Shown: positions 1,578 through 18,957, counted from the stretch's first letter. The stretch: DNA of 64,000 nucleotides from Patescibacteria group bacterium (GCA_034520665.1 JAXHNJ010000001.1:2579-66578), one strand, 5' to 3'. Notes: a model not told the origin generated them from the letters alone. A program made the numbers and translations.

Positions 1578-2032
1578 GAAAAAATAAAGTCGTTTCCGCA
1601 TCCCGCTCAAGCAGGATTACAAATCAAGAAATGGTCAAGAAAGAAGAAAGAAAATTTAATCAAAGGTAAAAAAACTTAATACCTTTTTAAAACACAATTA
1701 TTTATCGAGGGTAACCCCGAGTGGCTTAAATAATACAAACAAACAGCGGTTTTAACGGATTCGTCGTTGTTTTTTTATTTTATTAAGGTAATTTTTTTTA
1801 TCTTTATAGTTTAATCTACTTTTTAAATTCGCTAGCCGTTCACGCTTTTCGTCTAGACTACCCTCTTTTAAGAGATATTTTGCGTATTTTGCGAATATTC
1901 ACTTCAACTTCTCCGAGCCATTTCTTTGTTTTTAAACCCCAATCTACGTACCTCAAAACACTAACTTGAAAAATCCCCTAAAAAAACCTATAATTAGAGT
2001 ATAATTTAAATAATAAACGGAGGAAAAAATAT

Positions 2033-2533
2033 ATGGCTGAAGAAAAAAAAGAAATCCCTGATCGGGGTAAAACCTTACTTTCATGGGATTTTTCAGAATA
2101 TGACATACCTAATCGGGGAAAATTATGGTATGTTTCTACTTTATTAATATCGGCGGCTATTTTAGTGTGGTCAATCTTTACCGGTAATTATCTCTTTACC
2201 CTGGTTATTATTCTGGTGGGTATTATTTTTGTTTTCCAAAACCGTAAAAAACCAAAAATTCTTGAGTGCCGCATTAAAGAAGATGGTATAGAAACTGGCA
2301 CTAGCTTCTATGACTACAATGATATTAAAAAATTCTGGATTGTTTACCGCCCTCCTGAAACAAAAGTGCTTTATATCGATTTTAAAAGCTCACTTAAACC
2401 AACCCTGCCTATTTCTCTGGAAAAACAAAACCCACTTGAAGTCAGAAAAGTGTTAAAAAAATATATTGAAGAAGATTTAGAAAAGGAAGAAGAGCCAGCT
2501 TCAGATCAAATTAGCCGTTCACTTAAGATTTAG
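2033..2533 (+). CDS. Hypothetical membrane protein (two predicted TM helices)
   Basis: ORF with an RBS-like ggagg upstream and hydrophobic segments. An identical copy lies at 22055..22555(-). Confidence 0.5.
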   Translation: MAEEKKEIPDRGKTLLSWDFSEYDIPNRGKLWYVSTLLISAAILVWSIFTGNYLFTLVIILVGIIFVFQNRKKPKILECRIKEDGIETGTSFYDYNDIKKFWIVYRPPETKVLYIDFKSSLKPTLPISLEKQNPLEVRKVLKKYIEEDLEKEEEPASDQISRSLKI

Positions 2534-2559
2534 ATTAATTATAAGATATCTTTACTTTT

Positions 2560-2631
2560 GCCCTCGTCGTTCAACGGATAGGACGTAGGATTGCGGATCC
2601 TAAAATAGAGGTTCAATTCCTCTCGAGGGCA
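2560..2631 (+). tRNA. tRNA-Arg (anticodon GCG)
   Basis: Hand-folded cloverleaf. Acceptor GCCCTCG/CGAGGGC, D-stem GTTC/GGAC, anticodon stem TAGGA/TCCTA with loop TTGCGGA, T-arm AGAGG-TTCAATT-CCTCT, discriminator A. No encoded CCA. Confidence 0.7.
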
Positions 2632-2682
2632 TGGGTAAGGATAATTTTTTATTTTTAAAATTAATTATGCTATCATATAAAC

Positions 2683-3504
2683 ATGGATAATTTTTATAAA
2701 GAGCCAAAAATATTTTCTGAAAATCAACAAGGTTTTAAAACTGGTTTTATTGCCGCCATTGTTATAATTATTTCTTTATTAATAATTTTCGCTGGTTTAA
2801 CTAAAGCTGCTATTATAGATAATTTTCTTAATATACCTTTATTAGAACCAAATTCATCTAGTATCGATACCAGAAAATCTGACTCTTTAAATACTAATAC
2901 AAGGGGTTATCCAGTTATAACTTCTTATAGTATTGAAGATATTGGCTCTCCTGTAGAAAAACCAGTAATTTATCTTTACCCAGAAAAAGAAACTCAAATA
3001 GAAATAAATATAGATTTCCCCGGAAAAATATTCGCATCAAATCCCGAATATCAAAATGGCTGGCATGTGATAGCAAAACCTAGTGGGGAAATATTAAATC
3101 TAATAAATAATAAAAAATACAACTATCTTTTCTGGGAAGGACAATACCAGAACAAGATCGCCTACGATCTTTCACAAGGCTTTATTGTAAAAGGAAAAAA
3201 TACAAAATTATTCTTCCAAAAAAGTTTAAAAGATATGGGCCTTATTGACCAAGAAATAAAAGAATTTATCGAATATTGGCTACCACGTATGCAAAACAAT
3301 AAATTTAACCTTATTCATTTTGCTACGGCAGAAGAATATCATAATCGAGTTAAATTAAATATTTTACCAAAACCGGATTCAGTACAAAGAATTATTATGG
3401 TTTACAAAGCCTTAGAAGACCCAATAAAAATTACACCTCAATTAATAAAAAACTTCGAAAGAATAGGATTTACTGTAATCGAATGGGGTGGCATCGAATT
3501 ATAA
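2683..3504 (+). CDS. Hypothetical N-terminally membrane-anchored protein
   Basis: ORF with an N-terminal TM helix. No recognisable catalytic motif. Mirrored at 21084..21905(-). Confidence 0.45.
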   Translation: MDNFYKEPKIFSENQQGFKTGFIAAIVIIISLLIIFAGLTKAAIIDNFLNIPLLEPNSSSIDTRKSDSLNTNTRGYPVITSYSIEDIGSPVEKPVIYLYPEKETQIEINIDFPGKIFASNPEYQNGWHVIAKPSGEILNLINNKKYNYLFWEGQYQNKIAYDLSQGFIVKGKNTKLFFQKSLKDMGLIDQEIKEFIEYWLPRMQNNKFNLIHFATAEEYHNRVKLNILPKPDSVQRIIMVYKALEDPIKITPQLIKNFERIGFTVIEWGGIEL

Positions 3505-3524
3505 AGTAACTCTTAAAAATACTG

Positions 3525-5630
3525 TTGATAATTTTAGTATTTTTATTGAATAGATCTATGATCAAAGCTAATTCTGATTTTACAGAAATTCCTACTGTCG
3601 GACCAACCACAGCCCGACGGCTAAAAAGTCTTGGCTTAAATAAAGTACAAGACCTTCTTTTTTATTTTCCTAATAGATACCAGGATTTTTCCGAAATAAC
3701 CCCTATCAAAGACATTAAGCCGGAAGAAGTTTATACTATCAGAGGTACCTTACAACTTATAAAAAGCCGGCGCAGCTGGAAAAAGCGTCGTCTGACTATT
3801 ACTGAAGCTATGGTTAAAGATAAGACTGCTTCTATTAAAATAATTTGGTTTAATCAGCCTTATCTAAAGAAAATACTTAATCCCGGAGATGAAATTATTC
3901 TTTCGGGTAAGGTTAAAATGCAGGAATTAACTTTGGAATTCTTAGCTCCTTCTTTTGAAAAAGTAAAAAAAGAACAAACCCACACCGGCCGTATAGTACC
4001 GGTTTATCCCTTAACTAGCGGACTTTCTCAAAGACAAATAAGATTTTTTATAAAAACTGCACTAACTTTGCGTAAAAAAATTAAAGAAACCCTGCCTGAA
4101 AGAATTACCAAAAAATACCAGCTAATGCCTTTGCCAGAAGCTATAAAACAAATTCATTTTCCTGATTCTTTTGAAAAGTTAGAAAAGGCTTCAAAGAGAC
4201 TTAAATTTGGCGAGCTTTTTTATATTCAGATACAATCACTGCAAAATAAAAGATTTATTAAACAAACTCGTGCTCCGGTTATAAATTATAAAGATAAATA
4301 TATTGATGATTTTAAAAATAACCTGCCTTTTAAACTAACCAAGGCTCAGGAAAAAGCAAGTCAGGAAATTATTAAAGATCTTAAAAAAGGTAACCCCATG
4401 AACAGGCTTTTAGAAGGAGACGTAGGCTCTGGAAAAACAGTAGTGGCCCTAATGGCTGCTTTTCTAGCCATTAAAAATGGCTTTCAAGTGGCTTTTATGG
4501 CTCCGACAGAAATACTGGCCCGGCAGCATTATTTAAAAATAAAAAATATATTAAAAACTTTTAACTTCTCTCTGGGGCTTTTAACCAGTAAACTGATAAA
4601 AATTAACGATGAGGAATTATCAAAAAAGAAAGCCAGTACTATAATAAAAAAAGGTGGCGTGAATATAGTTATTGGCACTCATTCTATAATCCAGGAAAAA
4701 ATTAGTTTTCACAATTTAGCTTTTGTGGTGGTTGATGAACAGCACCGTTTCGGAGTTGAGCAAAGAAAAGCCCTAAGAGACAAATCCTCAAAAAAACATG
4801 ATTTAGCGCCACATTTACTCTCAATGACCGCCACCCCCATTCCTCGCTCGCTGGCTCTAACTGTCTACGCTGACCTTGACCTTTCTATAATTGACCAAAT
4901 GCCTCAGGGCCGTAAAAAAATAAAAACTGAAGTGATTGAACCGGAAAAAAGAAAAAAAACTTACAAGTTTATTAAAGAAGAAATTAAAAATGGAAACCAG
5001 GTTTTTGTAGTCTGTCCTTTAATCGAACCTTCGGATAAACTAGGTGTAAAATCTGTTAAAGAGGAATATGAGAAAATAGCTAAAGATATTTTTCCAGATT
5101 TTAAAGTGGCCAGGCTCCACGGTAAAATGAAAACCCAAGAAAAAGAAAAAATTATGGATCAAATGAAAAATAAAGCCATAGATATCCTAGTTTCCACCTC
5201 AGTTATTGAAGTCGGCATAGATATTCCTGACGCCACGGTCATGATGATTGAAGGAGCTGAAAGATTTGGTTTGGCTCAACTGCATCAGTTTCGGGGGCGA
5301 GTGGGGCGCAGTGAAAAACAATCTTTTTGCTTTGTTTTTACAGAAAGTGAATCACCCAAAAATCTAAAAAGACTGGAGGCTTTAGAAAAATCTCAAGATG
5401 GTTTTAAATTAGCTGAATATGACTTAAAAATGCGCGGTCCCGGTGTGTTAACCGGTGCCCAACAATCTGGTTTGCCCGATTTCAAAATGGCCACTTTGGC
5501 AGACGTAGATATTATTAAAATGGCACGTGAAGCAGCCCAAGATTTAACTAAAAAAGATCCGGCCTTGAAAAAATATTATAAAATTAAGCAAAAGGCCGAG
5601 AATTTATATAAAGACACACATTGGGAATAA
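3525..5630 (+). CDS. recG: ATP-dependent DNA helicase RecG
   Basis: Walker A GDVGSGKT, DEQHRFG (DEAH-like box) and a helicase C-terminal domain with the QxxGRVGR motif. Size ~700 aa with an N-terminal wedge region. Confidence 0.9.
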   Translation: MIILVFLLNRSMIKANSDFTEIPTVGPTTARRLKSLGLNKVQDLLFYFPNRYQDFSEITPIKDIKPEEVYTIRGTLQLIKSRRSWKKRRLTITEAMVKDKTASIKIIWFNQPYLKKILNPGDEIILSGKVKMQELTLEFLAPSFEKVKKEQTHTGRIVPVYPLTSGLSQRQIRFFIKTALTLRKKIKETLPERITKKYQLMPLPEAIKQIHFPDSFEKLEKASKRLKFGELFYIQIQSLQNKRFIKQTRAPVINYKDKYIDDFKNNLPFKLTKAQEKASQEIIKDLKKGNPMNRLLEGDVGSGKTVVALMAAFLAIKNGFQVAFMAPTEILARQHYLKIKNILKTFNFSLGLLTSKLIKINDEELSKKKASTIIKKGGVNIVIGTHSIIQEKISFHNLAFVVVDEQHRFGVEQRKALRDKSSKKHDLAPHLLSMTATPIPRSLALTVYADLDLSIIDQMPQGRKKIKTEVIEPEKRKKTYKFIKEEIKNGNQVFVVCPLIEPSDKLGVKSVKEEYEKIAKDIFPDFKVARLHGKMKTQEKEKIMDQMKNKAIDILVSTSVIEVGIDIPDATVMMIEGAERFGLAQLHQFRGRVGRSEKQSFCFVFTESESPKNLKRLEALEKSQDGFKLAEYDLKMRGPGVLTGAQQSGLPDFKMATLADVDIIKMAREAAQDLTKKDPALKKYYKIKQKAENLYKDTHWE

Positions 5631-5639
5631 GCCAAGCTC

Positions 5640-5668
5640 TTGACAAATATTAAAATTTTAGATAGTAT
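5640..5668 (+). promoter_or_regulatory. Sigma70-like promoter (TTGACA-N17-TAGTAT) immediately downstream of recG
   Basis: Perfect -35 hexamer and 17-nt spacer read directly from the sequence. It precedes the structured leader of the 91-aa ORF. Confidence 0.4.
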
Positions 5669-5680
5669 TTATTATTATAG

Positions 5681-5810
5681 GCACTTTAAGTACACACGAG
5701 GGAGCGCTTCCGCTCATAAATAACTAAAGTCTTAAACAGGTAAAGATTGATCCTCTCGCCTGTTTAAAAGACTATTTATAAAAAAAGTGCTCCCTCTTTA
5801 ATTTTTTCAA
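5681..5810 (+). promoter_or_regulatory. Structured 5' leader (nested hairpins, terminator-like long-range stem + T-run); candidate riboswitch/attenuator
   Basis: GAGCG-CTTC-CGCTC hairpin. A 13-bp interrupted stem agtcttaaacagg/cctgtttaaaagact. A long-range stem gagggagc...gctccctc followed by tttaatttttt. A 7-codon uORF with AGGAGG lies downstream. Confidence 0.35.
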
Positions 5811-5923
5811 TTAATTAATTATTTCTTGGTCTAGTTGACTTAAAAACAAAAAAAGGAGGTGAATTAATTGAAATATAAAACCATAAATTAGCTAAGTTTG
5901 TCTGTTTAAAGAGAGGATCAAAG

Positions 5924-6199
5924 ATGTGTGTCTACACAAATAATCTCTGTTCTTTACTGGGAGTTAACAACGCCAGTCAGATTATACATCGCAACGGAGA
6001 AAAAACATTATTAGAAGAAATCCGGAAATTTTCAAAAAAGGAAGGATTCAAAAAACATCTTGAAAGAAACAGCAGTGGCTTAATCAACTGGGCCCGGCAA
6101 TGGGCTGAGCATGAAAATCACTCCAAGTTAAGAAATGAGGTTATTAAAATAATTGGGGATGTTAATCCCGAAATTAAAAAACATCTACAGACAAACTAG
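5924..6199 (+). CDS. Hypothetical 91-aa protein
   Basis: Good RBS (gagagga 7 nt upstream of the ATG) and a strong intrinsic terminator immediately downstream. Identical copy at 18389..18664(-). Confidence 0.5.
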   Translation: MCVYTNNLCSLLGVNNASQIIHRNGEKTLLEEIRKFSKKEGFKKHLERNSSGLINWARQWAEHENHSKLRNEVIKIIGDVNPEIKKHLQTN

Positions 6200-6208
6200 T
6201 ACTTTCAC

Positions 6209-6242
6209 CAGGGTGGTTCAGCCGAACCACCCTTCTTTTTTT
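6209..6242 (+). terminator. Rho-independent terminator
   Basis: GGGTGGTTC-agcc-GAACCACCC stem-loop followed by TTCTTTTTTT. Confidence 0.8.
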
Positions 6243-6305
6243 ATAGATTAAAAAAAATCTTATTTAAAAAAAAGATCTTTTTATATTATTTGGCTTAATT
6301 AATTT

Positions 6306-6926
6306 TTAAAGCAATGAATCAATAATATCTTTGAGTTCCTCCTCTTCAATTAACTCAGTTATTTCATAATTATTTACAAAGAAATGAGGCGTGCCCTGAA
6401 CACCTAAACTTGTTCCTTCCTCTATATCTTTCTGAATTAAAGCTAGGGTTTCATTATTATTAACACATTGAATAAATTCATCAGTGTCCAAATCTAAGCC
6501 AGAAGCTAAGGGTACATATAAGTCATCAGTTAGTTTTTTTTGGTTTTGAAAAAGTAGATCGTGCATCTGCCAAAATTTATCCTGCTTCTGAGCGCAACGG
6601 GCCGCCTTAGCCGCGTTTAAAGATTGATCATGAATTTGATGAAGCGGAAAATCCTTCCAGACAATAGCTATCTCTCCTTCATATTCATCATTTAAATTAC
6701 GAAAAATATCGGCCAACTCTCTGCAATAAGGACACTGAAAATCCCCATATTGAATTATTACCACTTCATTACTTTTTTTCCCTATAATGGGGTTTTCTGA
6801 TTTAATTTTCGGAAAACTTGAACCAGTTTTATCATTAAAAAAAGACAAAACCGAATAAGCAAATAGAATAACTATTAATACAGCTAATACTATTAAAGCA
6901 TTTAGGCCTAGCTTTTTTTTATCCAT
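6306..6926 (-). CDS. DsbA-like thiol:disulfide oxidoreductase (membrane-anchored thioredoxin fold, CPYC active site); intact copy
   Basis: N-terminal TM helix. CxxC motif FQCPYCRE with a thioredoxin-fold context. 206 aa. The copy on the other arm is frameshifted. Confidence 0.8.
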   Translation of the reverse strand: MDKKKLGLNALIVLAVLIVILFAYSVLSFFNDKTGSSFPKIKSENPIIGKKSNEVVIIQYGDFQCPYCRELADIFRNLNDEYEGEIAIVWKDFPLHQIHDQSLNAAKAARCAQKQDKFWQMHDLLFQNQKKLTDDLYVPLASGLDLDTDEFIQCVNNNETLALIQKDIEEGTSLGVQGTPHFFVNNYEITELIEEEELKDIIDSLL

Positions 6927-6929
6927 TTA

Positions 6930-8186
6930 TTATTTCAGTCTTATTTTATAAACTCGTCCTGTATTTTTATCGGTAAAATAAATATATTCTTCATTATTGG
7001 AAAGATAAACATTCTGGGCCGTATAGTTACCAAATCCGGAAGAATTTACCGGTCTAGCTAATAATTCTTTTGAACCTGTTTCCAGATTAATTTTATAAAA
7101 ATCATCAGGTACATTATTAGCTAATTCCGGATAAATGTCACTGCCACTGGGCAGAAATTCAGGTACGGCGCAGTAAATATAATTATTATCGCCAAAAACA
7201 CATTTATCAGGCCAGGTCTGTATGTTTAAATCAACTTGACTGGCTCCTATATTTTCCATAGTGCCGTCCATTATATGAAGACTGGGGTTATAATTTGATT
7301 CTTTGTCAAAAACACTGTATAAAATAGTATTGCCTGTCGGTGACCATTTTGATTTAAAACCCCTTCCGGATACATCAACAGAGGGGAAATTTTCATTATT
7401 AGCCCCTAAAAAAATTATTTCCTGCTCTTCAGTACTGGTTGATTTGTTATAAGTAGCAATAACCTGATTATTAGGAGCCCAATTTACAGTTACTTGATTA
7501 GCATATTGCCCCAAGTCTTCCACCAATCTGGCTGAAGTGCCTTCAGGGTCAGAAACAGCTAAATAATTATCTCCTTCCTGCTCGCCCTGATACTTATAAG
7601 CTAATTTACCTGATGACGGAGAAAAAGAAAATTCATATGTTTCTTTAGGTAAACTGTACTGCTTTTTTAGGTTAAAATCGTAAGTTATTTTGGATCGGTC
7701 AGGAAAAGTAATAACAGCTTTATCACGTGAAGGAGACCAGTAAATATCTTCGGCTCCGGGATATTTATCGTCAGTTAATTTTGTTTTAGTGGTGCCATCC
7801 GGCGAAGTTTTAATAAATTCTCCAGTTAATTCATCATAATAAATCAAATCCTTTTTATTGGTATCTATTACAGCTGACTTGGTTAAGTCTTCGGTAATCT
7901 TACTAACCTCGGTAATCCCGCCGGAAGCTACCTGGGAGGGCGGTTCGGGCTGAGCTGTACCATTAATATTAGGCAAAGCTTCGTTAACATTTAAATTATC
8001 ATTAATATTGCCTGTGGGGCGATTAACCGCGTTAATATTAGGTAAAATGCCGTTGACATTATAATTATCATTATCATTAGTATCTATTATTGGCGAAAAT
8101 AAGATACGGTAAATTAAATAGCCAAAAAAAACGGCTACGGCTATAAAGCCGATAATGAGTAAAATTCTTTTTAATTTTGGGTTCAT
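6930..8186 (-). CDS. Membrane-anchored PD40/TolB-like beta-propeller repeat protein
   Basis: N-terminal TM, an N-rich linker, then repeated Y/W-rich blade-like segments (YWSPSRDKAVITF, SFSPSSGKLAY, VNWAPNNQVIATY, KWSPTGNTILYSV). Confidence 0.5.
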   Translation of the reverse strand: MNPKLKRILLIIGFIAVAVFFGYLIYRILFSPIIDTNDNDNYNVNGILPNINAVNRPTGNINDNLNVNEALPNINGTAQPEPPSQVASGGITEVSKITEDLTKSAVIDTNKKDLIYYDELTGEFIKTSPDGTTKTKLTDDKYPGAEDIYWSPSRDKAVITFPDRSKITYDFNLKKQYSLPKETYEFSFSPSSGKLAYKYQGEQEGDNYLAVSDPEGTSARLVEDLGQYANQVTVNWAPNNQVIATYNKSTSTEEQEIIFLGANNENFPSVDVSGRGFKSKWSPTGNTILYSVFDKESNYNPSLHIMDGTMENIGASQVDLNIQTWPDKCVFGDNNYIYCAVPEFLPSGSDIYPELANNVPDDFYKINLETGSKELLARPVNSSGFGNYTAQNVYLSNNEEYIYFTDKNTGRVYKIRLK

Positions 8187-8341
8187 ATAATCTATTTATA
8201 AATTAATTAAATTATTTATTAATAGTTAAAATACAGATAAGTTTGGAGCTAAAATTTTATAATTAATAGTAGAGTTTATTAGCTGTATTTAGATATAAAA
8301 AAATATTTCTCTAATAATTTGACGATATAATCAAGTAAATT

Positions 8342-9616
8342 TTAATGAAGATAAGTTTGAGCACAACAAATATGATCAGCTGGACAAAAACATTCATTAT
8401 TATCAATACAAGCAAGATCCTCGCCGCCACCTTGGTATTTCATATCATTAAATTCCGGGCTATTATAGGTGTCACAGTCTACCTCAATTTCATTTTTACT
8501 ATCACATTTCCCAGGATCCCGACAATCAATTTCTGTTTTTAAGGCTTTCATACAACAAATAGTGTCAGCTTCTACGTTAGCCCGGGAATCACTGCTACAA
8601 AAAATTTTGCTAGGAGCTATGAGATATCTTGGTTCATTATTATCAGAGTCCCAACATTGGGTACCGCCACGTTCACAATCTATTCTTATATCAGTAACTT
8701 CTTCACAGACTTTTTCAGTCAACTCATCTTGTAAAAGATTAACTTCAAATATTCCATTACTACTAGTACCACGTATTTTTGCAAAACGGCAGTCCATATT
8801 CCCAAAACCCTTATTAATTCTACGGCAGCTTGATTTTATTTCTGGATTTTTAGCAATAACAGCATCCACTTCTTGGCATTTTTCATCATCAGCTTCATCG
8901 CATAAATCCTTGGGGTCAAAACAATTTAAAGGACAATCCTTTTTAGAAGTAACGTCATTGGCGCAAATTTTTGGTTCTCCGGATTTAGTTTCTACAGTCG
9001 GATCACATTCACTACCACAACAATATGATTCACCATAAGCTGCTTTATCCTGGGCACTTTTAGGAATATCATATCTTGTACCACAAGCAAAATATGGGTA
9101 ACTATCTATTGATTCTTTATCCGGGAAATCTTTGCAATAAAAAGTATCTAAAACATTTTTTGATATATTAGACAAGGGCAAAAGTTTAAAGCGGACCAAG
9201 GCTGGGTTAATAGTATTAAGTAAAACAAAAGCCCCTAAGGTTAAAACCAGACCCATTAAAGCGCCGTTTAAAGTGGCTTTGGCTTTTTCTATTTTGGTGG
9301 CATTGCCGCTGGCAGTAATCCACTGGAAACCAGCAAAGACAATCATGACAGCGGCAAAGATACCGGCCGCTCGAGCAAACCATTGGTAAAACTGTATAAT
9401 ATAATCGCCAAAGTTATTGACACAATAATCACAGGTAGAGGTATTACAATCGGGATCACATTTTTTGGTTAAGCCGGGAATTTGTAAATTTACTTTAATC
9501 TGTTTTTCACCCACTTCTGTATCACTTCCTTCTTCCTGAGCTAAAACTTGCCCTGAATAAAATAACAAAACGGAAAAAATTGATAGGATTAAGATTATTT
9601 TAGCTATTTTTTTCAT
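8342..9616 (-). CDS. Cys-rich secreted/membrane protein, paralog B. It has a signal peptide, a conserved two-TM-helix module (possibly TrbC/VirB2-like pilin; uncertain) and a divergent Cys-rich C-terminal domain with about 30 Cys.
   Basis: Signal peptide ending AQEEG. A module FYQWFARAAGIFAAVMIVFAGFQWITASGNATKIEKAKATLNGALMGLVLTLGAFVLL that is near-identical at nucleotide level to paralog A. The C-terminal ~220 aa is dominated by Cys. Confidence 0.6.
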   Translation of the reverse strand: MKKIAKIILILSIFSVLLFYSGQVLAQEEGSDTEVGEKQIKVNLQIPGLTKKCDPDCNTSTCDYCVNNFGDYIIQFYQWFARAAGIFAAVMIVFAGFQWITASGNATKIEKAKATLNGALMGLVLTLGAFVLLNTINPALVRFKLLPLSNISKNVLDTFYCKDFPDKESIDSYPYFACGTRYDIPKSAQDKAAYGESYCCGSECDPTVETKSGEPKICANDVTSKKDCPLNCFDPKDLCDEADDEKCQEVDAVIAKNPEIKSSCRRINKGFGNMDCRFAKIRGTSSNGIFEVNLLQDELTEKVCEEVTDIRIDCERGGTQCWDSDNNEPRYLIAPSKIFCSSDSRANVEADTICCMKALKTEIDCRDPGKCDSKNEIEVDCDTYNSPEFNDMKYQGGGEDLACIDNNECFCPADHICCAQTYLH

Positions 9617-9796
9617 CTTATTATTTAATTAGGAAAAATATTATTTTCATTTTTAACATATAAGTTAACATCCATACAGCAATGTCCATTAGGCACAATA
9701 CTGCAATCAGTAGCACTGGCAGATGCACTTGATCCACAAGGATTTTCTCCACATAAAGCCGATAATGAGTAAAATTCTTTTTAATTTTGGGTTCAT
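9617..9796 (-). pseudogene. Gene remnants: 42-nt copy of the first 14 codons of the 418-aa propeller gene (MNPKLKRILLIIGF) fused to a decayed Cys-rich C-terminal tail (..ENPCGSSASASATDCSIVPNGHCCMDVN..)
   Basis: 9755..9796 is identical to 8145..8186. Downstream, an alternative frame reads a Cys-rich tail resembling paralog C-termini. Confidence 0.5.
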
Positions 9797-9818
9797 ATTA
9801 ATAATATTTACTTATATT

Positions 9819-11045
9819 TTAATTTTTCCACAATAAATTAGTGCGCATCCAACAATTTGAACTACAATTTTCAGTAGTGTTGTCGTAATAGGTACCTGAC
9901 ATACTATTATAACTTTCTCCATTGTCTAAAATATCACTATCACAATCTATCTGTATAATATCTTTTTCTTCCCAAACATCTCCCATACTCGAGTAAGGTT
10001 TTTCTTCTTGGCAAAATATATTTTCTTTAGGAAATAGAGCGCAACACCATTTATCAATATCTCCTACTCTTTCATCATTTGTACAATAATCCCTTGGCTC
10101 ATCTTTATCCCAACAAGCTGTTTCTACTTCTCCAGAATATTCTCCTTTAAAACTACAATTTATTCTTTTCCAATTTCCTTCACAAGGATTTTCTACTATT
10201 TCAACATAAGCACAGGAGTCAAAGGAAAGACCGGGTCTATCCTTACTACATTTATAATCAGTTATTTTATTTTTTTCCAATATGTCGTCAATTTTATAAC
10301 ACTCATCTTTATTAGCTTCCTCACATAATTTTTGTGGGTCAAAACAATTTAAAGGACAATCTTCACCCACCATAGTTACATCATTAGCACAAATTTGTGG
10401 GTTACCCTCCTCATCAACATCACTACAGACACTACCACAACAATAAGATTCACCATAACCCACTTCATCCTGGACACTTTTAGGAATATCATAACTTGTA
10501 CCACAAGCAAAATGTGGGTAATTATCTATTGATTCTTTATCCGGGAAATCTTTGCAATAAAAAGTATCTAAAACATTTTTTGATATATTAGACAAGGGCA
10601 AAAGTTTAAAGCGGACCAAGGCCGGGTTAATAGTATTAAGTAAAACAAAAGCCCCTAAGGTTAAAACCAGACCGATTAAAGCGCCGTTTAAAGTGGCTTT
10701 GGCTTTTTCTATTTTGGTGGCATTGCCGCTGGCAGTAATCCACTGGAAACCAGCAAAGACAATCATGACAGCGGCAAAGATACCGGCCGCTCGAGCAAAC
10801 CATTGGTAAAACTGTATAATATATTCGCCAAAGTTATTGACACAGTAACTACCAGCAAATTTTCCGTTTTCATCACAGGGTTTAGTCAATTTTGGTATTT
10901 TCAAATTTACTGGTATTTCCTTTTCTCCGGTTTCATTACTACCCTCTTCTTGAGCTAAAGTATTATAAAAAGGAAAGAGTAAAAAAAGTAATACTGTTAA
11001 AACTAAAGTTAATTTAGTTAATATTTTTATATTTTTATTTATCAT
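9819..11045 (-). CDS. Cys-rich secreted/membrane protein, paralog A (408-aa model). The ORF track extends it to 11180 because of an indel that fuses the upstream gene's tail.
   Basis: Identical to 13545..14771(+) from the MINKNIK start. It has the same conserved N-terminal module as paralog B and a different Cys-rich C-terminus. Confidence 0.55.
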   Translation of the reverse strand: MINKNIKILTKLTLVLTVLLFLLFPFYNTLAQEEGSNETGEKEIPVNLKIPKLTKPCDENGKFAGSYCVNNFGEYIIQFYQWFARAAGIFAAVMIVFAGFQWITASGNATKIEKAKATLNGALIGLVLTLGAFVLLNTINPALVRFKLLPLSNISKNVLDTFYCKDFPDKESIDNYPHFACGTSYDIPKSVQDEVGYGESYCCGSVCSDVDEEGNPQICANDVTMVGEDCPLNCFDPQKLCEEANKDECYKIDDILEKNKITDYKCSKDRPGLSFDSCAYVEIVENPCEGNWKRINCSFKGEYSGEVETACWDKDEPRDYCTNDERVGDIDKWCCALFPKENIFCQEEKPYSSMGDVWEEKDIIQIDCDSDILDNGESYNSMSGTYYDNTTENCSSNCWMRTNLLWKN

Positions 11046-11601
11046 ATTATAATTTAATAAATAGGACTTAAAAATTGCCTTTAAAGCCTCAAAAGTTTCT
11101 TTATCCAAAAAATTTGTAATCTCGCTAGGATTTTCATAAATATAATGTCCTAAAATAATCAGAAAAATAATTACTGCCAAACCAAGCCAAATATACCAGG
11201 TAGCCAGAAAAAAACTGACGATAGCCCCGAGAATTGGTATTATTATTCTTTGAATGAGTATTTTTAAAAACTTTTTAGCTGCTTTTTTAACTACTTTTTT
11301 GACTTTTTCTCTTAACCTCCTCTTTGGCTATTTTTCTTACTCTTTCTAATTTTCTTCTTCTTTGTCTTTCCTCATCTTCTTCTTCCTCCTTTTTTGTATC
11401 TTCCTGATTAAAATCTAATCCATCTTTTTCAGAGGATGAATTTCTATATTCTTCTGGAGTTTCCCCATCATCCGCTTGGGTTTCAGGAATTTCACGTAAA
11501 TTTTCTTGATTAATGTTTCTTTCATTAAAACGTTTTTCTTTTAACTCTCTTTCAATTTCCCTATCTTTATTTTCACTTTTTTTTTCATCTAATTCTTTCA
11601 T
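11046..11601 (-). pseudogene. K/E-rich small membrane protein, frameshifted copy (intact 182-aa version at 12988..13536)
   Basis: The N-terminal 104 codons are in one frame. The C-terminal TM part (WLGLAVIIFLIILGHYIY..) is shifted and read as an N-terminal extension of paralog A. Indels relative to the other arm were seen directly. Confidence 0.5.
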
Positions 11602-11611
11602 AACTTATATT

Positions 11612-12199
11612 TTATAGATCACTCTTTTCACCCCAGGAAGCAGCATTAATTTTCCATGTATTATCAATTTTTTTTAACTCTAAAACTAATTTCTGATAAT
11701 AATTATCCAGAGTATCTGTTAGATCTTCTTCAGTTCTTTCAGTTAATAACTCTACTCTAGCGCTTTCGTCGGAAAAATTAGTTATTTTATTAGAAATTAC
11801 TTTACTCACCATAGCTTTATAATCATCGTCTTCAGATCTAATTTTCTCTTGTTCTTCAATATAGCTATCTATATCTTTTTGGTAGCTAGAAGTCATCCAT
11901 GATTTAAGGTTTTCTAAATTTTCAAAATCATTTTTGTTTGAATAACTGCCGAAACGTTCAGCAAAAGTATGGGCCATTCCTATTATTTCATTTTTTTCTT
12001 TACTTTTATCAATAGCCGAATTAGTATTATTATTCGCATTTGTATTAACCGAAAGATTTAGATTTTGATTCTGATTTAAATTTAAAGCAAAATTAGTATT
12101 TGCTTGATTAAGATTGTCGTCATTCACATTGCCATTACCCTCATACCAATAAAAAAATACAAAGGCCAGACCTCCTAAAATAATTATAACGGCTACCAT
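11612..12199 (-). CDS. Hypothetical membrane-anchored protein with N-rich linker (195 aa)
   Basis: N-terminal TM and a low-complexity N/Q-rich region. Identical divergent copy at 12390..12977. Confidence 0.5.
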   Translation of the reverse strand: MVAVIIILGGLAFVFFYWYEGNGNVNDDNLNQANTNFALNLNQNQNLNLSVNTNANNNTNSAIDKSKEKNEIIGMAHTFAERFGSYSNKNDFENLENLKSWMTSSYQKDIDSYIEEQEKIRSEDDDYKAMVSKVISNKITNFSDESARVELLTERTEEDLTDTLDNYYQKLVLELKKIDNTWKINAASWGEKSDL

Positions 12200-12240
12200 A
12201 ATGATAAATAGATAATTTTTTCATATATTTATATTTTAAT

Positions 12241-12350
12241 TAACCTAAACCTTGGCTGTCTTTACTAACACTTTATACCTCTGATAGCTTTCGGCGGTAA
12301 GCTATCAGAGGTATAAAGTGTTAGTAAAGACAGCCAAGGTTTAGGTTAAT
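12241..12350. repeat. Symmetry junction of the inverted duplication: arms meet at 12291..12298 with an 8-nt asymmetric spacer (tcggcggt)
   Basis: Perfect reverse-complement symmetry on both sides (..ctgatagctt|tcggcggt|aagctatcag..). Confidence 0.9.
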
Positions 12351-12389
12351 TAAAATATAAATATATGAAAAAATTATCTATTTATCATT

Positions 12390-12977
12390 ATGGTAGCCGT
12401 TATAATTATTTTAGGAGGTCTGGCCTTTGTATTTTTTTATTGGTATGAGGGTAATGGCAATGTGAATGACGACAATCTTAATCAAGCAAATACTAATTTT
12501 GCTTTAAATTTAAATCAGAATCAAAATCTAAATCTTTCGGTTAATACAAATGCGAATAATAATACTAATTCGGCTATTGATAAAAGTAAAGAAAAAAATG
12601 AAATAATAGGAATGGCCCATACTTTTGCTGAACGTTTCGGCAGTTATTCAAACAAAAATGATTTTGAAAATTTAGAAAACCTTAAATCATGGATGACTTC
12701 TAGCTACCAAAAAGATATAGATAGCTATATTGAAGAACAAGAGAAAATTAGATCTGAAGACGATGATTATAAAGCTATGGTGAGTAAAGTAATTTCTAAT
12801 AAAATAACTAATTTTTCCGACGAAAGCGCTAGAGTAGAGTTATTAACTGAAAGAACTGAAGAAGATCTAACAGATACTCTGGATAATTATTATCAGAAAT
12901 TAGTTTTAGAGTTAAAAAAAATTGATAATACATGGAAAATTAATGCTGCTTCCTGGGGTGAAAAGAGTGATCTATAA
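12390..12977 (+). CDS. Hypothetical membrane-anchored protein with N-rich linker (195 aa), right-arm copy
   Basis: Identical protein to 11612..12199(-). Confidence 0.5.
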   Translation: MVAVIIILGGLAFVFFYWYEGNGNVNDDNLNQANTNFALNLNQNQNLNLSVNTNANNNTNSAIDKSKEKNEIIGMAHTFAERFGSYSNKNDFENLENLKSWMTSSYQKDIDSYIEEQEKIRSEDDDYKAMVSKVISNKITNFSDESARVELLTERTEEDLTDTLDNYYQKLVLELKKIDNTWKINAASWGEKSDL

Positions 12978-12987
12978 AATATAAGTT

Positions 12988-13536
12988 ATGAAAGAATTAG
13001 ACATGAAAAAAAAGAGTGAAAATAAAGATAGGGAAATTGAAAGAGAGTTAAAAGAAAAACGTTTTAATGAAAGAAACATTAATCAAGAAAATTTACGTGA
13101 AATTCCTGAAACCCAAGCGGATGATGGGGAAACTCCAGAAGAATATAGAAATTCATCCTCTGAAAAAGATGGATTAGATTTTAATCAGGAAGATACAAAA
13201 AAGGAGGAAGAAGAAGATGAGGAAAGACAAAGAAGAAGAAAATTAGAAAGAGTAAGAAAAATAGCCAAAGAGGAGGTTAAGAAAAAAGTCAAAAAAGTAG
13301 TTAAAAAAGCAGCTAAAAAGTTTTTAAAAATACTCATTCAAAGAATAATAATACCAATTCTCGGGGCTATCGTCAGTTTTTTTCTGGCTACCTGGTATAT
13401 TTGGCTTGGTTTGGCAGTAATTATTTTTCTGATTATTTTAGGACATTATATTTATGAAAATCCTAGCGAGATTACAAATTTTTTGGATAAAGAAACTTTT
13501 GAGGCTTTAAAGGCAATTTTTAAGTCCTATTTTTAA
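12988..13536 (+). CDS. K/E-rich protein with C-terminal TM helix (182 aa), intact copy
   Basis: Highly charged N-terminal region, a KK-rich segment, then a hydrophobic C-terminal helix. Confidence 0.45.
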   Translation: MKELDMKKKSENKDREIERELKEKRFNERNINQENLREIPETQADDGETPEEYRNSSSEKDGLDFNQEDTKKEEEEDEERQRRRKLERVRKIAKEEVKKKVKKVVKKAAKKFLKILIQRIIIPILGAIVSFFLATWYIWLGLAVIIFLIILGHYIYENPSEITNFLDKETFEALKAIFKSYF

Positions 13537-13544
13537 ATTATAAT

Positions 13545-14771
13545 ATGATAAATAAAAATATAAAAATATTAACTAAATTAACTTTAGTTTTAACAGTATT
13601 ACTTTTTTTACTCTTTCCTTTTTATAATACTTTAGCTCAAGAAGAGGGTAGTAATGAAACCGGAGAAAAGGAAATACCAGTAAATTTGAAAATACCAAAA
13701 TTGACTAAACCCTGTGATGAAAACGGAAAATTTGCTGGTAGTTACTGTGTCAATAACTTTGGCGAATATATTATACAGTTTTACCAATGGTTTGCTCGAG
13801 CGGCCGGTATCTTTGCCGCTGTCATGATTGTCTTTGCTGGTTTCCAGTGGATTACTGCCAGCGGCAATGCCACCAAAATAGAAAAAGCCAAAGCCACTTT
13901 AAACGGCGCTTTAATCGGTCTGGTTTTAACCTTAGGGGCTTTTGTTTTACTTAATACTATTAACCCGGCCTTGGTCCGCTTTAAACTTTTGCCCTTGTCT
14001 AATATATCAAAAAATGTTTTAGATACTTTTTATTGCAAAGATTTCCCGGATAAAGAATCAATAGATAATTACCCACATTTTGCTTGTGGTACAAGTTATG
14101 ATATTCCTAAAAGTGTCCAGGATGAAGTGGGTTATGGTGAATCTTATTGTTGTGGTAGTGTCTGTAGTGATGTTGATGAGGAGGGTAACCCACAAATTTG
14201 TGCTAATGATGTAACTATGGTGGGTGAAGATTGTCCTTTAAATTGTTTTGACCCACAAAAATTATGTGAGGAAGCTAATAAAGATGAGTGTTATAAAATT
14301 GACGACATATTGGAAAAAAATAAAATAACTGATTATAAATGTAGTAAGGATAGACCCGGTCTTTCCTTTGACTCCTGTGCTTATGTTGAAATAGTAGAAA
14401 ATCCTTGTGAAGGAAATTGGAAAAGAATAAATTGTAGTTTTAAAGGAGAATATTCTGGAGAAGTAGAAACAGCTTGTTGGGATAAAGATGAGCCAAGGGA
14501 TTATTGTACAAATGATGAAAGAGTAGGAGATATTGATAAATGGTGTTGCGCTCTATTTCCTAAAGAAAATATATTTTGCCAAGAAGAAAAACCTTACTCG
14601 AGTATGGGAGATGTTTGGGAAGAAAAAGATATTATACAGATAGATTGTGATAGTGATATTTTAGACAATGGAGAAAGTTATAATAGTATGTCAGGTACCT
14701 ATTACGACAACACTACTGAAAATTGTAGTTCAAATTGTTGGATGCGCACTAATTTATTGTGGAAAAATTAA
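13545..14771 (+). CDS. Cys-rich secreted/membrane protein, paralog A (right-arm copy)
   Basis: Signal peptide, conserved two-helix module and a Cys-rich C-terminal domain. Forms a tandem pair with 14974..16248. Confidence 0.6.
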   Translation: MINKNIKILTKLTLVLTVLLFLLFPFYNTLAQEEGSNETGEKEIPVNLKIPKLTKPCDENGKFAGSYCVNNFGEYIIQFYQWFARAAGIFAAVMIVFAGFQWITASGNATKIEKAKATLNGALIGLVLTLGAFVLLNTINPALVRFKLLPLSNISKNVLDTFYCKDFPDKESIDNYPHFACGTSYDIPKSVQDEVGYGESYCCGSVCSDVDEEGNPQICANDVTMVGEDCPLNCFDPQKLCEEANKDECYKIDDILEKNKITDYKCSKDRPGLSFDSCAYVEIVENPCEGNWKRINCSFKGEYSGEVETACWDKDEPRDYCTNDERVGDIDKWCCALFPKENIFCQEEKPYSSMGDVWEEKDIIQIDCDSDILDNGESYNSMSGTYYDNTTENCSSNCWMRTNLLWKN

Positions 14772-14793
14772 AATATAAGTAAATATTATTAAT

Positions 14794-14973
14794 ATGAACC
14801 CAAAATTAAAAAGAATTTTACTCATTATCGGCTTTATGTGGAGAAAATCCTTGTGGATCAAGTGCATCTGCCAGTGCTACTGATTGCAGTATTGTGCCTA
14901 ATGGACATTGCTGTATGGATGTTAACTTATATGTTAAAAATGAAAATAATATTTTTCCTAATTAAATAATAAG
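14794..14973 (+). pseudogene. Gene remnants (propeller-gene start fragment + decayed Cys-rich tail), right-arm copy
   Basis: Mirror of 9617..9796. Confidence 0.5.
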
Positions 14974-16248
14974 ATGAAAAAAATAGCTAAAATAATCTTA
15001 ATCCTATCAATTTTTTCCGTTTTGTTATTTTATTCAGGGCAAGTTTTAGCTCAGGAAGAAGGAAGTGATACAGAAGTGGGTGAAAAACAGATTAAAGTAA
15101 ATTTACAAATTCCCGGCTTAACCAAAAAATGTGATCCCGATTGTAATACCTCTACCTGTGATTATTGTGTCAATAACTTTGGCGATTATATTATACAGTT
15201 TTACCAATGGTTTGCTCGAGCGGCCGGTATCTTTGCCGCTGTCATGATTGTCTTTGCTGGTTTCCAGTGGATTACTGCCAGCGGCAATGCCACCAAAATA
15301 GAAAAAGCCAAAGCCACTTTAAACGGCGCTTTAATGGGTCTGGTTTTAACCTTAGGGGCTTTTGTTTTACTTAATACTATTAACCCAGCCTTGGTCCGCT
15401 TTAAACTTTTGCCCTTGTCTAATATATCAAAAAATGTTTTAGATACTTTTTATTGCAAAGATTTCCCGGATAAAGAATCAATAGATAGTTACCCATATTT
15501 TGCTTGTGGTACAAGATATGATATTCCTAAAAGTGCCCAGGATAAAGCAGCTTATGGTGAATCATATTGTTGTGGTAGTGAATGTGATCCGACTGTAGAA
15601 ACTAAATCCGGAGAACCAAAAATTTGCGCCAATGACGTTACTTCTAAAAAGGATTGTCCTTTAAATTGTTTTGACCCCAAGGATTTATGCGATGAAGCTG
15701 ATGATGAAAAATGCCAAGAAGTGGATGCTGTTATTGCTAAAAATCCAGAAATAAAATCAAGCTGCCGTAGAATTAATAAGGGTTTTGGGAATATGGACTG
15801 CCGTTTTGCAAAAATACGTGGTACTAGTAGTAATGGAATATTTGAAGTTAATCTTTTACAAGATGAGTTGACTGAAAAAGTCTGTGAAGAAGTTACTGAT
15901 ATAAGAATAGATTGTGAACGTGGCGGTACCCAATGTTGGGACTCTGATAATAATGAACCAAGATATCTCATAGCTCCTAGCAAAATTTTTTGTAGCAGTG
16001 ATTCCCGGGCTAACGTAGAAGCTGACACTATTTGTTGTATGAAAGCCTTAAAAACAGAAATTGATTGTCGGGATCCTGGGAAATGTGATAGTAAAAATGA
16101 AATTGAGGTAGACTGTGACACCTATAATAGCCCGGAATTTAATGATATGAAATACCAAGGTGGCGGCGAGGATCTTGCTTGTATTGATAATAATGAATGT
16201 TTTTGTCCAGCTGATCATATTTGTTGTGCTCAAACTTATCTTCATTAA
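14974..16248 (+). CDS. Cys-rich secreted/membrane protein, paralog B (right-arm copy)
   Basis: Identical protein to 8342..9616(-). Confidence 0.6.
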   Translation: MKKIAKIILILSIFSVLLFYSGQVLAQEEGSDTEVGEKQIKVNLQIPGLTKKCDPDCNTSTCDYCVNNFGDYIIQFYQWFARAAGIFAAVMIVFAGFQWITASGNATKIEKAKATLNGALMGLVLTLGAFVLLNTINPALVRFKLLPLSNISKNVLDTFYCKDFPDKESIDSYPYFACGTRYDIPKSAQDKAAYGESYCCGSECDPTVETKSGEPKICANDVTSKKDCPLNCFDPKDLCDEADDEKCQEVDAVIAKNPEIKSSCRRINKGFGNMDCRFAKIRGTSSNGIFEVNLLQDELTEKVCEEVTDIRIDCERGGTQCWDSDNNEPRYLIAPSKIFCSSDSRANVEADTICCMKALKTEIDCRDPGKCDSKNEIEVDCDTYNSPEFNDMKYQGGGEDLACIDNNECFCPADHICCAQTYLH

Positions 16249-16403
16249 AATTTACTTGATTATATCGTCAAATTATTAGAGAAATATTTTTTTATATCTA
16301 AATACAGCTAATAAACTCTACTATTAATTATAAAATTTTAGCTCCAAACTTATCTGTATTTTAACTATTAATAAATAATTTAATTAATTTATAAATAGAT
16401 TAT

Positions 16404-17660
16404 ATGAACCCAAAATTAAAAAGAATTTTACTCATTATCGGCTTTATAGCCGTAGCCGTTTTTTTTGGCTATTTAATTTACCGTATCTTATTTTCGCCAA
16501 TAATAGATACTAATGATAATGATAATTATAATGTCAACGGCATTTTACCTAATATTAACGCGGTTAATCGCCCCACAGGCAATATTAATGATAATTTAAA
16601 TGTTAACGAAGCTTTGCCTAATATTAATGGTACAGCTCAGCCCGAACCGCCCTCCCAGGTAGCTTCCGGCGGGATTACCGAGGTTAGTAAGATTACCGAA
16701 GACTTAACCAAGTCAGCTGTAATAGATACCAATAAAAAGGATTTGATTTATTATGATGAATTAACTGGAGAATTTATTAAAACTTCGCCGGATGGCACCA
16801 CTAAAACAAAATTAACTGACGATAAATATCCCGGAGCCGAAGATATTTACTGGTCTCCTTCACGTGATAAAGCTGTTATTACTTTTCCTGACCGATCCAA
16901 AATAACTTACGATTTTAACCTAAAAAAGCAGTACAGTTTACCTAAAGAAACATATGAATTTTCTTTTTCTCCGTCATCAGGTAAATTAGCTTATAAGTAT
17001 CAGGGCGAGCAGGAAGGAGATAATTATTTAGCTGTTTCTGACCCTGAAGGCACTTCAGCCAGATTGGTGGAAGACTTGGGGCAATATGCTAATCAAGTAA
17101 CTGTAAATTGGGCTCCTAATAATCAGGTTATTGCTACTTATAACAAATCAACCAGTACTGAAGAGCAGGAAATAATTTTTTTAGGGGCTAATAATGAAAA
17201 TTTCCCCTCTGTTGATGTATCCGGAAGGGGTTTTAAATCAAAATGGTCACCGACAGGCAATACTATTTTATACAGTGTTTTTGACAAAGAATCAAATTAT
17301 AACCCCAGTCTTCATATAATGGACGGCACTATGGAAAATATAGGAGCCAGTCAAGTTGATTTAAACATACAGACCTGGCCTGATAAATGTGTTTTTGGCG
17401 ATAATAATTATATTTACTGCGCCGTACCTGAATTTCTGCCCAGTGGCAGTGACATTTATCCGGAATTAGCTAATAATGTACCTGATGATTTTTATAAAAT
17501 TAATCTGGAAACAGGTTCAAAAGAATTATTAGCTAGACCGGTAAATTCTTCCGGATTTGGTAACTATACGGCCCAGAATGTTTATCTTTCCAATAATGAA
17601 GAATATATTTATTTTACCGATAAAAATACAGGACGAGTTTATAAAATAAGACTGAAATAA
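16404..17660 (+). CDS. Membrane-anchored PD40/TolB-like beta-propeller repeat protein (right-arm copy)
   Basis: Identical protein to 6930..8186(-). Confidence 0.5.
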   Translation: MNPKLKRILLIIGFIAVAVFFGYLIYRILFSPIIDTNDNDNYNVNGILPNINAVNRPTGNINDNLNVNEALPNINGTAQPEPPSQVASGGITEVSKITEDLTKSAVIDTNKKDLIYYDELTGEFIKTSPDGTTKTKLTDDKYPGAEDIYWSPSRDKAVITFPDRSKITYDFNLKKQYSLPKETYEFSFSPSSGKLAYKYQGEQEGDNYLAVSDPEGTSARLVEDLGQYANQVTVNWAPNNQVIATYNKSTSTEEQEIIFLGANNENFPSVDVSGRGFKSKWSPTGNTILYSVFDKESNYNPSLHIMDGTMENIGASQVDLNIQTWPDKCVFGDNNYIYCAVPEFLPSGSDIYPELANNVPDDFYKINLETGSKELLARPVNSSGFGNYTAQNVYLSNNEEYIYFTDKNTGRVYKIRLK

Positions 17661-17663
17661 TAA

Positions 17664-18282: not shown

Positions 18283-18345
18283 AAATTAATTAAGCCAAAT
18301 AATATAAAAAGATCTTTTTTTTAAATAAGATTTTTTTTAATCTAT

Positions 18346-18379
18346 AAAAAAAGAAGGGTGGTTCGGCTGAACCACCCTG
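18346..18379 (-). terminator. Rho-independent terminator (mirror of 6209..6242)
   Basis: Same GC stem and T-run on the minus strand. Confidence 0.8.
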
Positions 18380-18388
18380 GTGAAAGTA

Positions 18389-18907: not shown

Positions 18908-18957
18908 CTATAATAATAAATACTATCTAAAATTTTAATATTTGTCAAGAGCTTGGC

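Follow-up and report, generated by a model that had tools for sequence, protein, structure and literature searches.

Why should a gene for a thiol:disulfide oxidoreductase of the DsbA type lie in one operon with genes for two proteins that hold two dozen cysteines or more apiece? The question is raised by an operon on the minus strand, at positions 6306–12199, of a 64,000-nucleotide stretch of DNA from a Patescibacteria group bacterium (GCA_034520665.1 JAXHNJ010000001.1:2579-66578); we refer to this whole stretch as the window. An initial annotation proposed that the operon encodes a specialized oxidative-folding and secretion module, in a gene context from which no such partner was known. The context turns out to be a familiar one: the region is the distal, envelope-facing pilin end of a published chromosomal type IV secretion system (T4SS) locus of Patescibacteria, in a setting of the ABY1 type. 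We consider it probable that this distal half of the system carries pilin-anchored ectodomains, and that the DsbA-like protein and a beta-propeller protein form an old accessory sub-module within it, one that is not strictly required.

Each gene of the operon has a mirror copy on the plus strand, for reasons given below. In the order of transcription, the features are as follows.

11612–12199, minus strand: bitopic protein of 195 residues, with an N-terminal transmembrane (TM) helix, an Asn-rich linker, and an outer domain of ~130 residues; mirror 12390–12977 (plus).
11054–11601, minus strand (start approximate in this copy): lysine/glutamate-rich (K/E-rich) protein with a C-terminal TM hairpin, frameshifted here; intact, with 182 residues, at 12988–13536 (plus).
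9819–11045, minus strand: paralog A, 408 residues and 24 Cys, with a signal peptide, a T4SS_pilin hairpin, and a Cys-rich ectodomain; clean copy 13545–14771 (plus).
9753–9796, minus strand: remnant, in which 14 codons from the start of the propeller gene lead into a tail in another frame; mirror 14794–14837 (plus).
8342–9616, minus strand: paralog B, 424 residues and 30 Cys, with the architecture of paralog A; mirror 14974–16248 (plus).
6930–8186, minus strand: membrane-anchored beta-propeller protein, 418 residues, assigned with AlphaFold2 and Foldseek; mirror 16404–17660 (plus).
6306–6926, minus strand: membrane-anchored DsbA/BdbD-type thioredoxin-fold protein, 206 residues; mirror 17664–18282 (plus), with two frameshifts.
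6210–6233, no strand: GC-rich palindromic hairpin between dsbA and a convergent open reading frame (ORF) of 91 residues; mirror 18355–18378.

The ORFs are co-oriented, as the initial annotation had it, with spacers of 3–202 bp. The order and strand that it gave for seven genes hold as well; in this copy the K/E-rich gene is frameshifted and its tail is fused to paralog A. A scan for promoters and terminators found no convincing signal inside the operon, and the transcription unit probably ends at the hairpin at 6210–6233. Translational coupling had been proposed from an overlap between the dsbA start and the propeller stop. The junction reads TAA-TAA-ATG, with a 3-nt spacer; there is no overlap through which the genes could be coupled, and the two simply abut.

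The Locus Belongs to a Type IV Secretion System

Position 12199 had been taken as the start of the module, a boundary that does not stand: the order of transcription continues upstream into a virB4-like gene. What lies there can be seen in an independent assembly (L001), in which the gene for the 195-residue protein is preceded by genes for a 592-residue protein, a PrgI/VirB3-like protein, a 229-residue TrsD/TraC-like protein, and a 669-residue VirB4. The 669-residue ATPase matches NCBIfam NF045971, the CD1110-type VirB4, with 365.9 bits (cutoff 325) and P-loop_TraG with an E value of 4.9e-27, and the PrgI-like protein matches PF12666 with 29.7 bits (cutoff 27). A precomputed match to PF26593 (TraC-like) is attached to the 229-residue protein, whose match to the TrsD family NF041427 is weak (28 bits, below the cutoff). 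The 592-residue protein has no significant match in Pfam, NCBIfam, or the PDB sequences. It and the 195-residue protein, examined as candidates for a VirB6-like polytopic and a VirB8-like bitopic component, hold conserved positions in the locus, with no significant sequence match to either.

Several components expected of such a T4SS are found together: a VirB4 in the cluster, VirB3/PrgI-like and TrsD-like genes adjoining virB4, and VirB2-like pilin genes near it. The downstream neighbors in the window encode RecG and a ComF-like protein, and a recG/comF neighborhood has been reported for T4SS loci of class ABY1. It is because of the VirB4, TrsD-like, and PrgI genes upstream, the PF18895 domain of the two paralogs, and this ABY1-type context that we identify the region as the pilin end of a Patescibacteria T4SS. 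The true order in the genome would then run from the 592-residue protein through PrgI/VirB3-like, TrsD-like, VirB4, the 195-residue protein, the K/E-rich protein, and the pilin-domain protein or proteins to the propeller and the DsbA-like protein.

The 195-residue protein deserves a further word. Its family lies directly after VirB4 in all 27 of the loci with a VirB4 match, and a family profile found nothing significant among PDB sequences and Pfam; the weak resemblances were to an ARC6-like IMS domain (1 of 18 members) and to SpoIIIAH (2 of 18). By size and topology we would guess that it is VirB8-like. An iterated hidden Markov model (HMM) of the propeller also caught this protein, by way of the TM helix and Asn-rich linker that the two have in common; we treat that match as an artifact of low complexity.

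A Probable Foldback Hides the Upstream Genes

In the window the T4SS gene order begins no earlier than the final codons of virB4, because the end of the contig is folded back on itself. Two features define the fold.

1–24587, no strand: inverted duplication of 12.29 kb, with arms 1–12290 and 12299–24587 and a hinge at 12291–12298, TCGGCGGT.
12294–12344, plus strand: end of the virB4-like gene, its last 16 codons and the stop, cut by the hinge, with the translation AVSYQRYKVLVKTAKV followed by the stop; mirror ~12245–12290 (minus).

The arms are reverse complements with 99.94% identity, 0 mismatches, and 6 insertions or deletions (indels) of 1–2 nt, most of which adjoin homopolymer runs. The operon sits in the left arm, on its minus strand. 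Different genes are broken in each arm: dsbA is intact in the left arm and carries its two frameshifts in the right, whereas the K/E-rich gene, intact in the right arm and encoding the identical 182-residue product in L001, is cut in the left to 104 residues, its tail being fused onto paralog A to give a 453-residue ORF with a TTG start. L001, which is 99.3% identical to the window, matches it from position 12293 onward only; before that position it has a different sequence, virB4 included. The identical propeller protein has the NCBI locus tag U5L76_00085, on a contig of 455,760 bp, a tag number that would fit a gene close to the contig start.

Could the palindrome of 12.3 kb be real, so that the cell has two copies of the operon? 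It might mark the hairpin telomere of a linear replicon, or the sequence might truly be duplicated in inverted orientation. Long reads over a covalently closed hairpin end would look identical to what is seen, and the left arm does extend to window position 1. We nevertheless find this very improbable. The independent assembly reads through the hinge into virB4, the hinge cuts that conserved gene 16 codons short of its stop, the arms differ by small indels only, and a near-identical gene sits on a 698-kb contig of another metagenome-assembled genome (MAG). The first two of these points lead us to reject the hairpin-telomere reading. The palindrome looks like an artifact of snap-back or foldback where a MAG contig, built from long reads or amplified DNA, begins. 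If so, the operon is one of two mirror images of a single copy, positions 1–12290 are counted twice, and the true upstream sequence is missing from the window. There is a practical lesson here, in that a foldback in a public MAG hid the ATPase genes of a T4SS, doubled 12 kb, and created frameshifts specific to each arm.

Pilin-Domain Proteins with Large Cys-Rich Ectodomains

The initial annotation credited each paralog with about 30 cysteines, a figure that is exact for B (30) and too high for A (24). Both proteins hold the T4SS_pilin domain PF18895 at residues ~70–136, paralog A with 29.1 bits (cutoff 26.6) and paralog B with 26.0 bits, just below the cutoff; neither matches PF04956. A near-identical protein bears the NCBI name "pilin." The AlphaFold2 model of paralog B (mean predicted local distance difference test score [pLDDT] 78) has a signal helix, a helical hairpin formed by residues 69–101 and 106–136, and a mostly confident ectodomain at 170–424. 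These are not small pilins, in which the hairpin subunit spans some 70–130 residues: the hairpin is present, yet the proteins reach 408 and 424 residues and their ectodomains about 280. Nor are they free secreted toxins, given the signal peptide and the T4SS_pilin membrane hairpin.

Full-length Cys-rich homologs are rare, and a search of 5.8 billion clustered proteins turned up only about six. When the C-terminal domain was used as a profile, 35 of 1.84 billion representative proteins matched, in each case in the C-terminal part of the protein; all are 350–530 residues long save one fragment of 88. The substrate idea of the initial annotation is favored by the strong conservation of the ectodomain cysteines. 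Across 25 aligned homologs, in which column identity averages 27%, 12 of these cysteines never vary and another 8 are conserved to 90% or more, and the Cys total is even in all five full-length close homologs and in both paralogs of the window. A Foldseek search of the ectodomain against the PDB gave no match below E = 1.

Paralogs A and B share 98%–100% nucleotide identity over ~300 nt that encode the hairpin, and ~50% in the flanking signal-peptide and ectodomain regions, a mosaic that suggests gene conversion of the hairpin anchor and divergence of the ectodomains. Since only one pilin gene precedes the propeller in relatives L002–L007, we take the pair to be a lineage-specific duplication. 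The spacer between the paralogs (14794–14960; mirror ~9630–9796) holds the 14 propeller codons and then, in another frame, a Cys-rich tail that contains CGSSASASATDCSIVPNGHCCMDVNLYV, resembles the C-terminus of a Cys-rich pilin ectodomain, and runs on to a stop. The spacer appears to be a deletion scar from a once longer array of pilin and propeller genes.

Related loci show what else the hairpin can carry. Among 78 pilin-domain proteins that flank propellers, PF18895 is found in 72 and PF04956 in 3. About one third of the 78 bear cell-wall hydrolase domains, the fusions comprising SLT (11), M15/VanY (~9), M23 (5), 3D (2), and C39-like (1) domains; paralogs A and B fall in the majority that lacks a recognizable ectodomain family. 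Fusions such as those at L003 13188–14384 and L043 11885–13315 are predicted to place a VirB1-like activity on a VirB2-like hairpin. Because the fused domains are so varied, the T4SS_pilin hairpin can be seen as a general anchor for extracytoplasmic domains. Cysteine makes up 3.9% of the residues in the pilin-domain proteins, compared with a background of 0.7%–1.0% and with 0.04%–0.26% in the other T4SS proteins.

The Propeller and the DsbA-Like Gene Are Linked

The assignment of a propeller was well founded. The AlphaFold2 model (pLDDT 87.7) shows a TM helix at residues 3–30, a disordered Asn-rich linker at 35–78, and a propeller at 85–418, in which C329 and C339 are invariant, and the fold is confirmed by Foldseek matches (~1e-11). 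These matches are generic, to oligogalacturonate lyase, WDR5, DPP-IV, and tricorn, and from the predicted fold no specific function follows. The protein itself has no Pfam match at E ≤ 0.1, and precomputed matches to PF07676 are present on several homologs, consistent with a PD40-type propeller. It does not have the architecture of TolB: its N-terminus is a TM helix followed by a disordered linker, and its neighbors are pilin-domain and DsbA-like genes, not tol-pal. There are more than 195 homologs, of ~415 residues, and those whose names bear a lineage come nearly all from Patescibacteria; the titles of a few MAGs read "uncultured Gammaproteobacteria."

The identification of the downstream gene as dsbA-like is equally secure (Thioredoxin_4, 1.5e-29; DSBA, 1.2e-17). 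PF13462 and PF01323 match over the full domain with 103.8 and 64.7 bits, and the thioredoxin fold, the CxxC motif, and the cis-proline are all found: the active site is CPYC at residues 65–68, a second Cys pair lies at 111/154, and the cis-proline is T179-P180, invariant among the 11 closest orthologs. The solved structures closest by sequence include BdbD (3eu3, 2.9e-14), 4pwo (1.2e-10), which is named DsbA and which we take to be an MdbA-type protein, and Actinobacterial DsbA-like proteins.

How widely is the neighborhood conserved? An alignment of 11 propeller sequences was run against a single genome from each GTDB species. It found 52 loci, in Kerfeld-, Magasanik-, Uhr-, Komeili-, Kuenen-, and Nomurabacteria, Paceibacter, and unnamed Patescibacteria, which were annotated by purpose-built HMMs on simple ORF calls, some with over-extended starts. 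In all 52, the sequence extends 900 bp or more beyond the propeller. The recognized gene that comes next is DsbA-like in 30, encodes a pilin-domain protein in 19, and is absent in 3, and the propeller adjoins pilin-domain proteins in every locus. In other words, a DsbA-like gene directly follows the propeller in more than half of the loci, always beside Cys-rich pilin-domain proteins, and the conservation that the initial annotation asked for is there. Loci with the DsbA-like gene reach down to 28% propeller identity. Every one of the 31 DsbA-like ORFs (L001–L056 and the window arm) lies after the propeller, most of them 0–12 nt away, with four larger gaps. The recurrent order, shared by L002–L004, is the 592-residue protein, PrgI, TrsD-like, VirB4, the 195-residue protein, in some cases K/E-rich, pilin-domain, propeller, in some cases DsbA-like, and pilin-domain.

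On a neighbor-joining tree of the propellers the presence of the DsbA-like gene is patchy, requiring eight parsimony changes, and DsbA-positive loci span the deepest splits of the ingroup; from these two features we conclude that the pairing is old and has been lost several times. The linkage is thus not incidental, but it is dispensable, and it is not purely catalytic. The last point comes from the orthologs themselves. The aligned active site holds a CxxC in 24 of the 31, most often CPYC or CPFC. It is gone in the other seven (L036, L037, L040, L042, L045, L050, and L051), which belong to two separate clades and read, for example, YETKET; these seven keep the second Cys pair, the cis-proline, and the position after the propeller. 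Active-site conservation across the orthologs is therefore incomplete, even though the protein in the window has its CPYC. The CxxC-less sequences indicate that the protein may have an additional, redox-independent binding role. A dedicated oxidase, as first proposed, is too strong a description: several losses have left 19 loci without the gene, and in seven orthologs the CxxC has disappeared.

A Possible Role for the Pair, and Its Alternatives

Which genes are present, how they are ordered and conserved, and how their products are predicted to fold is what the analysis shows; from it we infer the topology of these proteins, the relationship between the DsbA-like protein and its clients, and a role for the propeller. 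The signal peptide and hairpin would put both ends of a pilin-domain protein outside the membrane and its basic loop inside, so that paralogs A and B would each display a disulfide-knotted ectodomain of 280 residues on the outer face. Because each begins with a basic stretch and then a single TM helix, the domains of the DsbA-like protein, the propeller, and the 195-residue protein should face outward as well. The tethered CPYC protein could then oxidize the 12–15 disulfides of each ectodomain as it emerges from the membrane. Encoded 3 nt after the propeller, it is probably made in fixed proportion with it, and the propeller, on its flexible linker of 45 residues, might serve as a scaffold or holdase for the DsbA-like protein or for its clients.

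Several observations weigh against this proposal. The 19 loci without the DsbA-like gene still encode Cys-rich pilin-domain proteins (median 14.5 Cys), and because of these loci and of the seven orthologs without CxxC, the conserved function of the protein goes beyond oxidase activity, which may not even be the main part of it. The 64-kb window shows neither a DsbB nor a VKOR; the sole polytopic protein with a CxxC there is a prepilin peptidase. The DsbA family gene of Southlakia, SEML1_0787, lies far from the T4SS of that species, which has a VKOR. Loci of the Magasanik and Uhr type, which run ClpC, K/E-like, propeller, DsbA-like, pilin::M23 or M15 peptidase, RadA, have no virB4 within 10 kb, so that the tie to a T4SS rests there on the pilin domain only.

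An alternative is that the DsbA-like protein is the cell's general extracytoplasmic oxidase, not a dedicated one, and lies here by inherited gene order or because the pilin-domain proteins are its most abundant clients. Its family, Thioredoxin_4/BdbD-like, is very broad, and the protein is an ordinary member of it. Of the 80 best metagenome relatives in a reciprocal scan with the DsbA alignment, only 7 have the propeller or pilin context; that scan was dominated by generic DsbA-like genes of other phyla, and no probability of the context given the DsbA clade can be obtained from it. The single "DsbA family protein" of Southlakia, away from the T4SS, scores as essential at later time points, and pilins such as those of the type IV pilus cluster elsewhere in the window are classic clients of DsbA. 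We still think a general oxidase unlikely. It does not account for the invariable position of the gene after the propeller, seen for all 31 ORFs and most often at a distance of 0–12 nt, or for the propeller that is also found upstream in the three closest metagenome relatives, and the retention of the gene after loss of the CxxC argues for a role specific to the locus.

That same retention, in two independent clades, could be taken further. The thioredoxin-fold protein may be mainly a non-catalytic partner of the propeller, a chaperone or structural protein with redox chemistry in second place, much as TraF of the F plasmid is a CxxC-less thioredoxin fold required for pilus extension; genes that abut, as these two do, would suit a stoichiometric pair. 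We judge this distinctly improbable as the main function, since 24 of the 31 orthologs, that of the window included, retain the CxxC, and since the pilin-domain proteins have a median of 19 Cys at loci with a CxxC DsbA as opposed to 14.5 at loci without the gene (Mann-Whitney p = 0.009, uncorrected for phylogeny). The version of the initial annotation, a self-contained folding and secretion module for two secreted proteins in an unseen context, is scarcely tenable: although no secretion ATPase adjoins the genes within the window alone, VirB4, TrsD-like, and PrgI genes lie directly upstream in L001–L003 and in ~25 other loci, their absence here is an artifact of assembly, and the supposed substrates carry a T4SS_pilin membrane hairpin. 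What stands of that annotation is the conserved DsbA linkage and the conserved cysteines; the novel context, the dedicated oxidase, and the coupling by overlap do not.

An old, dispensable accessory pair within the pilin end of a T4SS remains the reading we prefer, and it invites some speculation. It is possible, though we put it forward only tentatively, that the "VirB2-like pilins" of ABY1-type loci form a module that delivers and anchors large disulfide-knotted binding domains and SLT, M15, and M23 cell-wall hydrolases at or on the T4SS; that the propeller and its thioredoxin-fold partner, a membrane-tethered pair not recognized before, act as a dedicated station for their assembly and folding; and that the ectodomain of paralogs A and B is a variable adhesin for host recognition whose hairpin is kept identical by gene conversion.

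Other Features of the Window

The remainder of the window holds several further features.

~45200–55900, plus strand: type IV pilus cluster, with a PilT/PilB-like ATPase (47401–48474), PilC (48483–49691), N_methyl prepilins (49898–50437, 53096–53788, and 54343–55032), and a prepilin peptidase (52322–53092); downstream of the cluster comes an NAD-dependent DNA ligase.
27146–27874, minus strand: direct repeat of 202 nt (27153–27354 and 27606–27807, 96% identical), each unit being a long-arm tRNA (27333–27419 and 27786–27874) followed by the truncated N-terminus of a GIY-YIG nuclease.
23011–26832, minus strand: 1273-residue fusion of B12-binding, radical SAM, and class-V aminotransferase domains, the 3′ part of its gene being doubled by the foldback as a 508-residue ORF at 51–1577.

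Comparison with Known Systems

In the sole species of Patescibacteria that is open to genetics, the T4SS is essential for epibiotic growth; the chief hint at what it does comes from its pilin arrays. The locus described here adds components that can be tested: large "pilin" ectodomains, rich in disulfides or able to cleave peptidoglycan, in a large class of these bacteria, and a propeller and a DsbA-like protein that travel with the pilins, the latter repeatedly redox-dead and still kept at the locus. Together they feed a testable hypothesis about what the T4SS displays at the cell surface.

The nearest relatives are the MPF_FATA-related systems of Patescibacteria already described (Wang et al. 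2023, PMC10633639; Quinonero-Coronel et al. 2025, PMC12102498). Our locus resembles them in its CD1110/MPF_FATA VirB4 with TrsD-like and PrgI/VirB3-like genes upstream, in the lack of a relaxase or coupling protein nearby, and in the recG, comF, and radA context of ABY1 type. It differs from the saccharibacterial systems, whose pilins are short (~125 residues) and whose DsbA is encoded elsewhere, in having Cys-rich ectodomains of 280 residues or enzymatic ones and an embedded propeller/DsbA pair. The T4SS and its pilin arrays are thus already published, and the pair within the array is unmentioned in the descriptions searched: the words DsbA, thioredoxin, disulfide, and propeller have 0 occurrences in the main texts, and a literature search found no paper combining Patescibacteria, DsbA, and type IV secretion, although such searches cannot prove that the pair had not been described. 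With VirB2/TrbC pilins, paralogs A and B share a signal peptide, a two-helix hairpin, a short basic loop, and PF18895; they are three to four times longer and have a large C-terminal globular domain. The Pam pili reported for bacteria of the candidate phyla radiation in a preprint, which are built of immunoglobulin-like subunits by donor-strand exchange, are an unrelated system.

BdbD of Bacillus subtilis and MdbA of Actinobacteria function in the folding of pilus or pseudopilus subunits. The DsbA-like protein of the window resembles them in sequence (BdbD, 3eu3) and in its N-terminal membrane tether. BdbD and MdbA act as general oxidases, with BdbC or VKOR for a partner, whereas the protein described here belongs to a T4SS pilin array, no partner for it is seen in the window, and some of its orthologs are redox-dead.

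The initial annotation took dedicated Dsb partners to be without precedent in this gene context, yet thioredoxin-fold helpers of Cys-rich T4SS subunits are already known. The F-type systems encode TrbB, a disulfide isomerase with a CxxC, and TraF, which lacks it, along with the Cys-rich clients TraN, TraU, and TraH (PMC11315126). In both settings the T4SS locus encodes a thioredoxin-fold protein beside Cys-rich envelope subunits, and in both there are redox-active and CxxC-less versions. The families are different; the window protein matches PF13728, the TraF/TrbB family, with 15 bits (E = 0.023, cutoff 23), and it is instead a DsbA/BdbD-type protein that has a membrane anchor and a helical insertion, in a monoderm host whose presumed clients are pilin-domain fusions. 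The likeness to TrbB and TraF is one of function only, probably reached by convergence.

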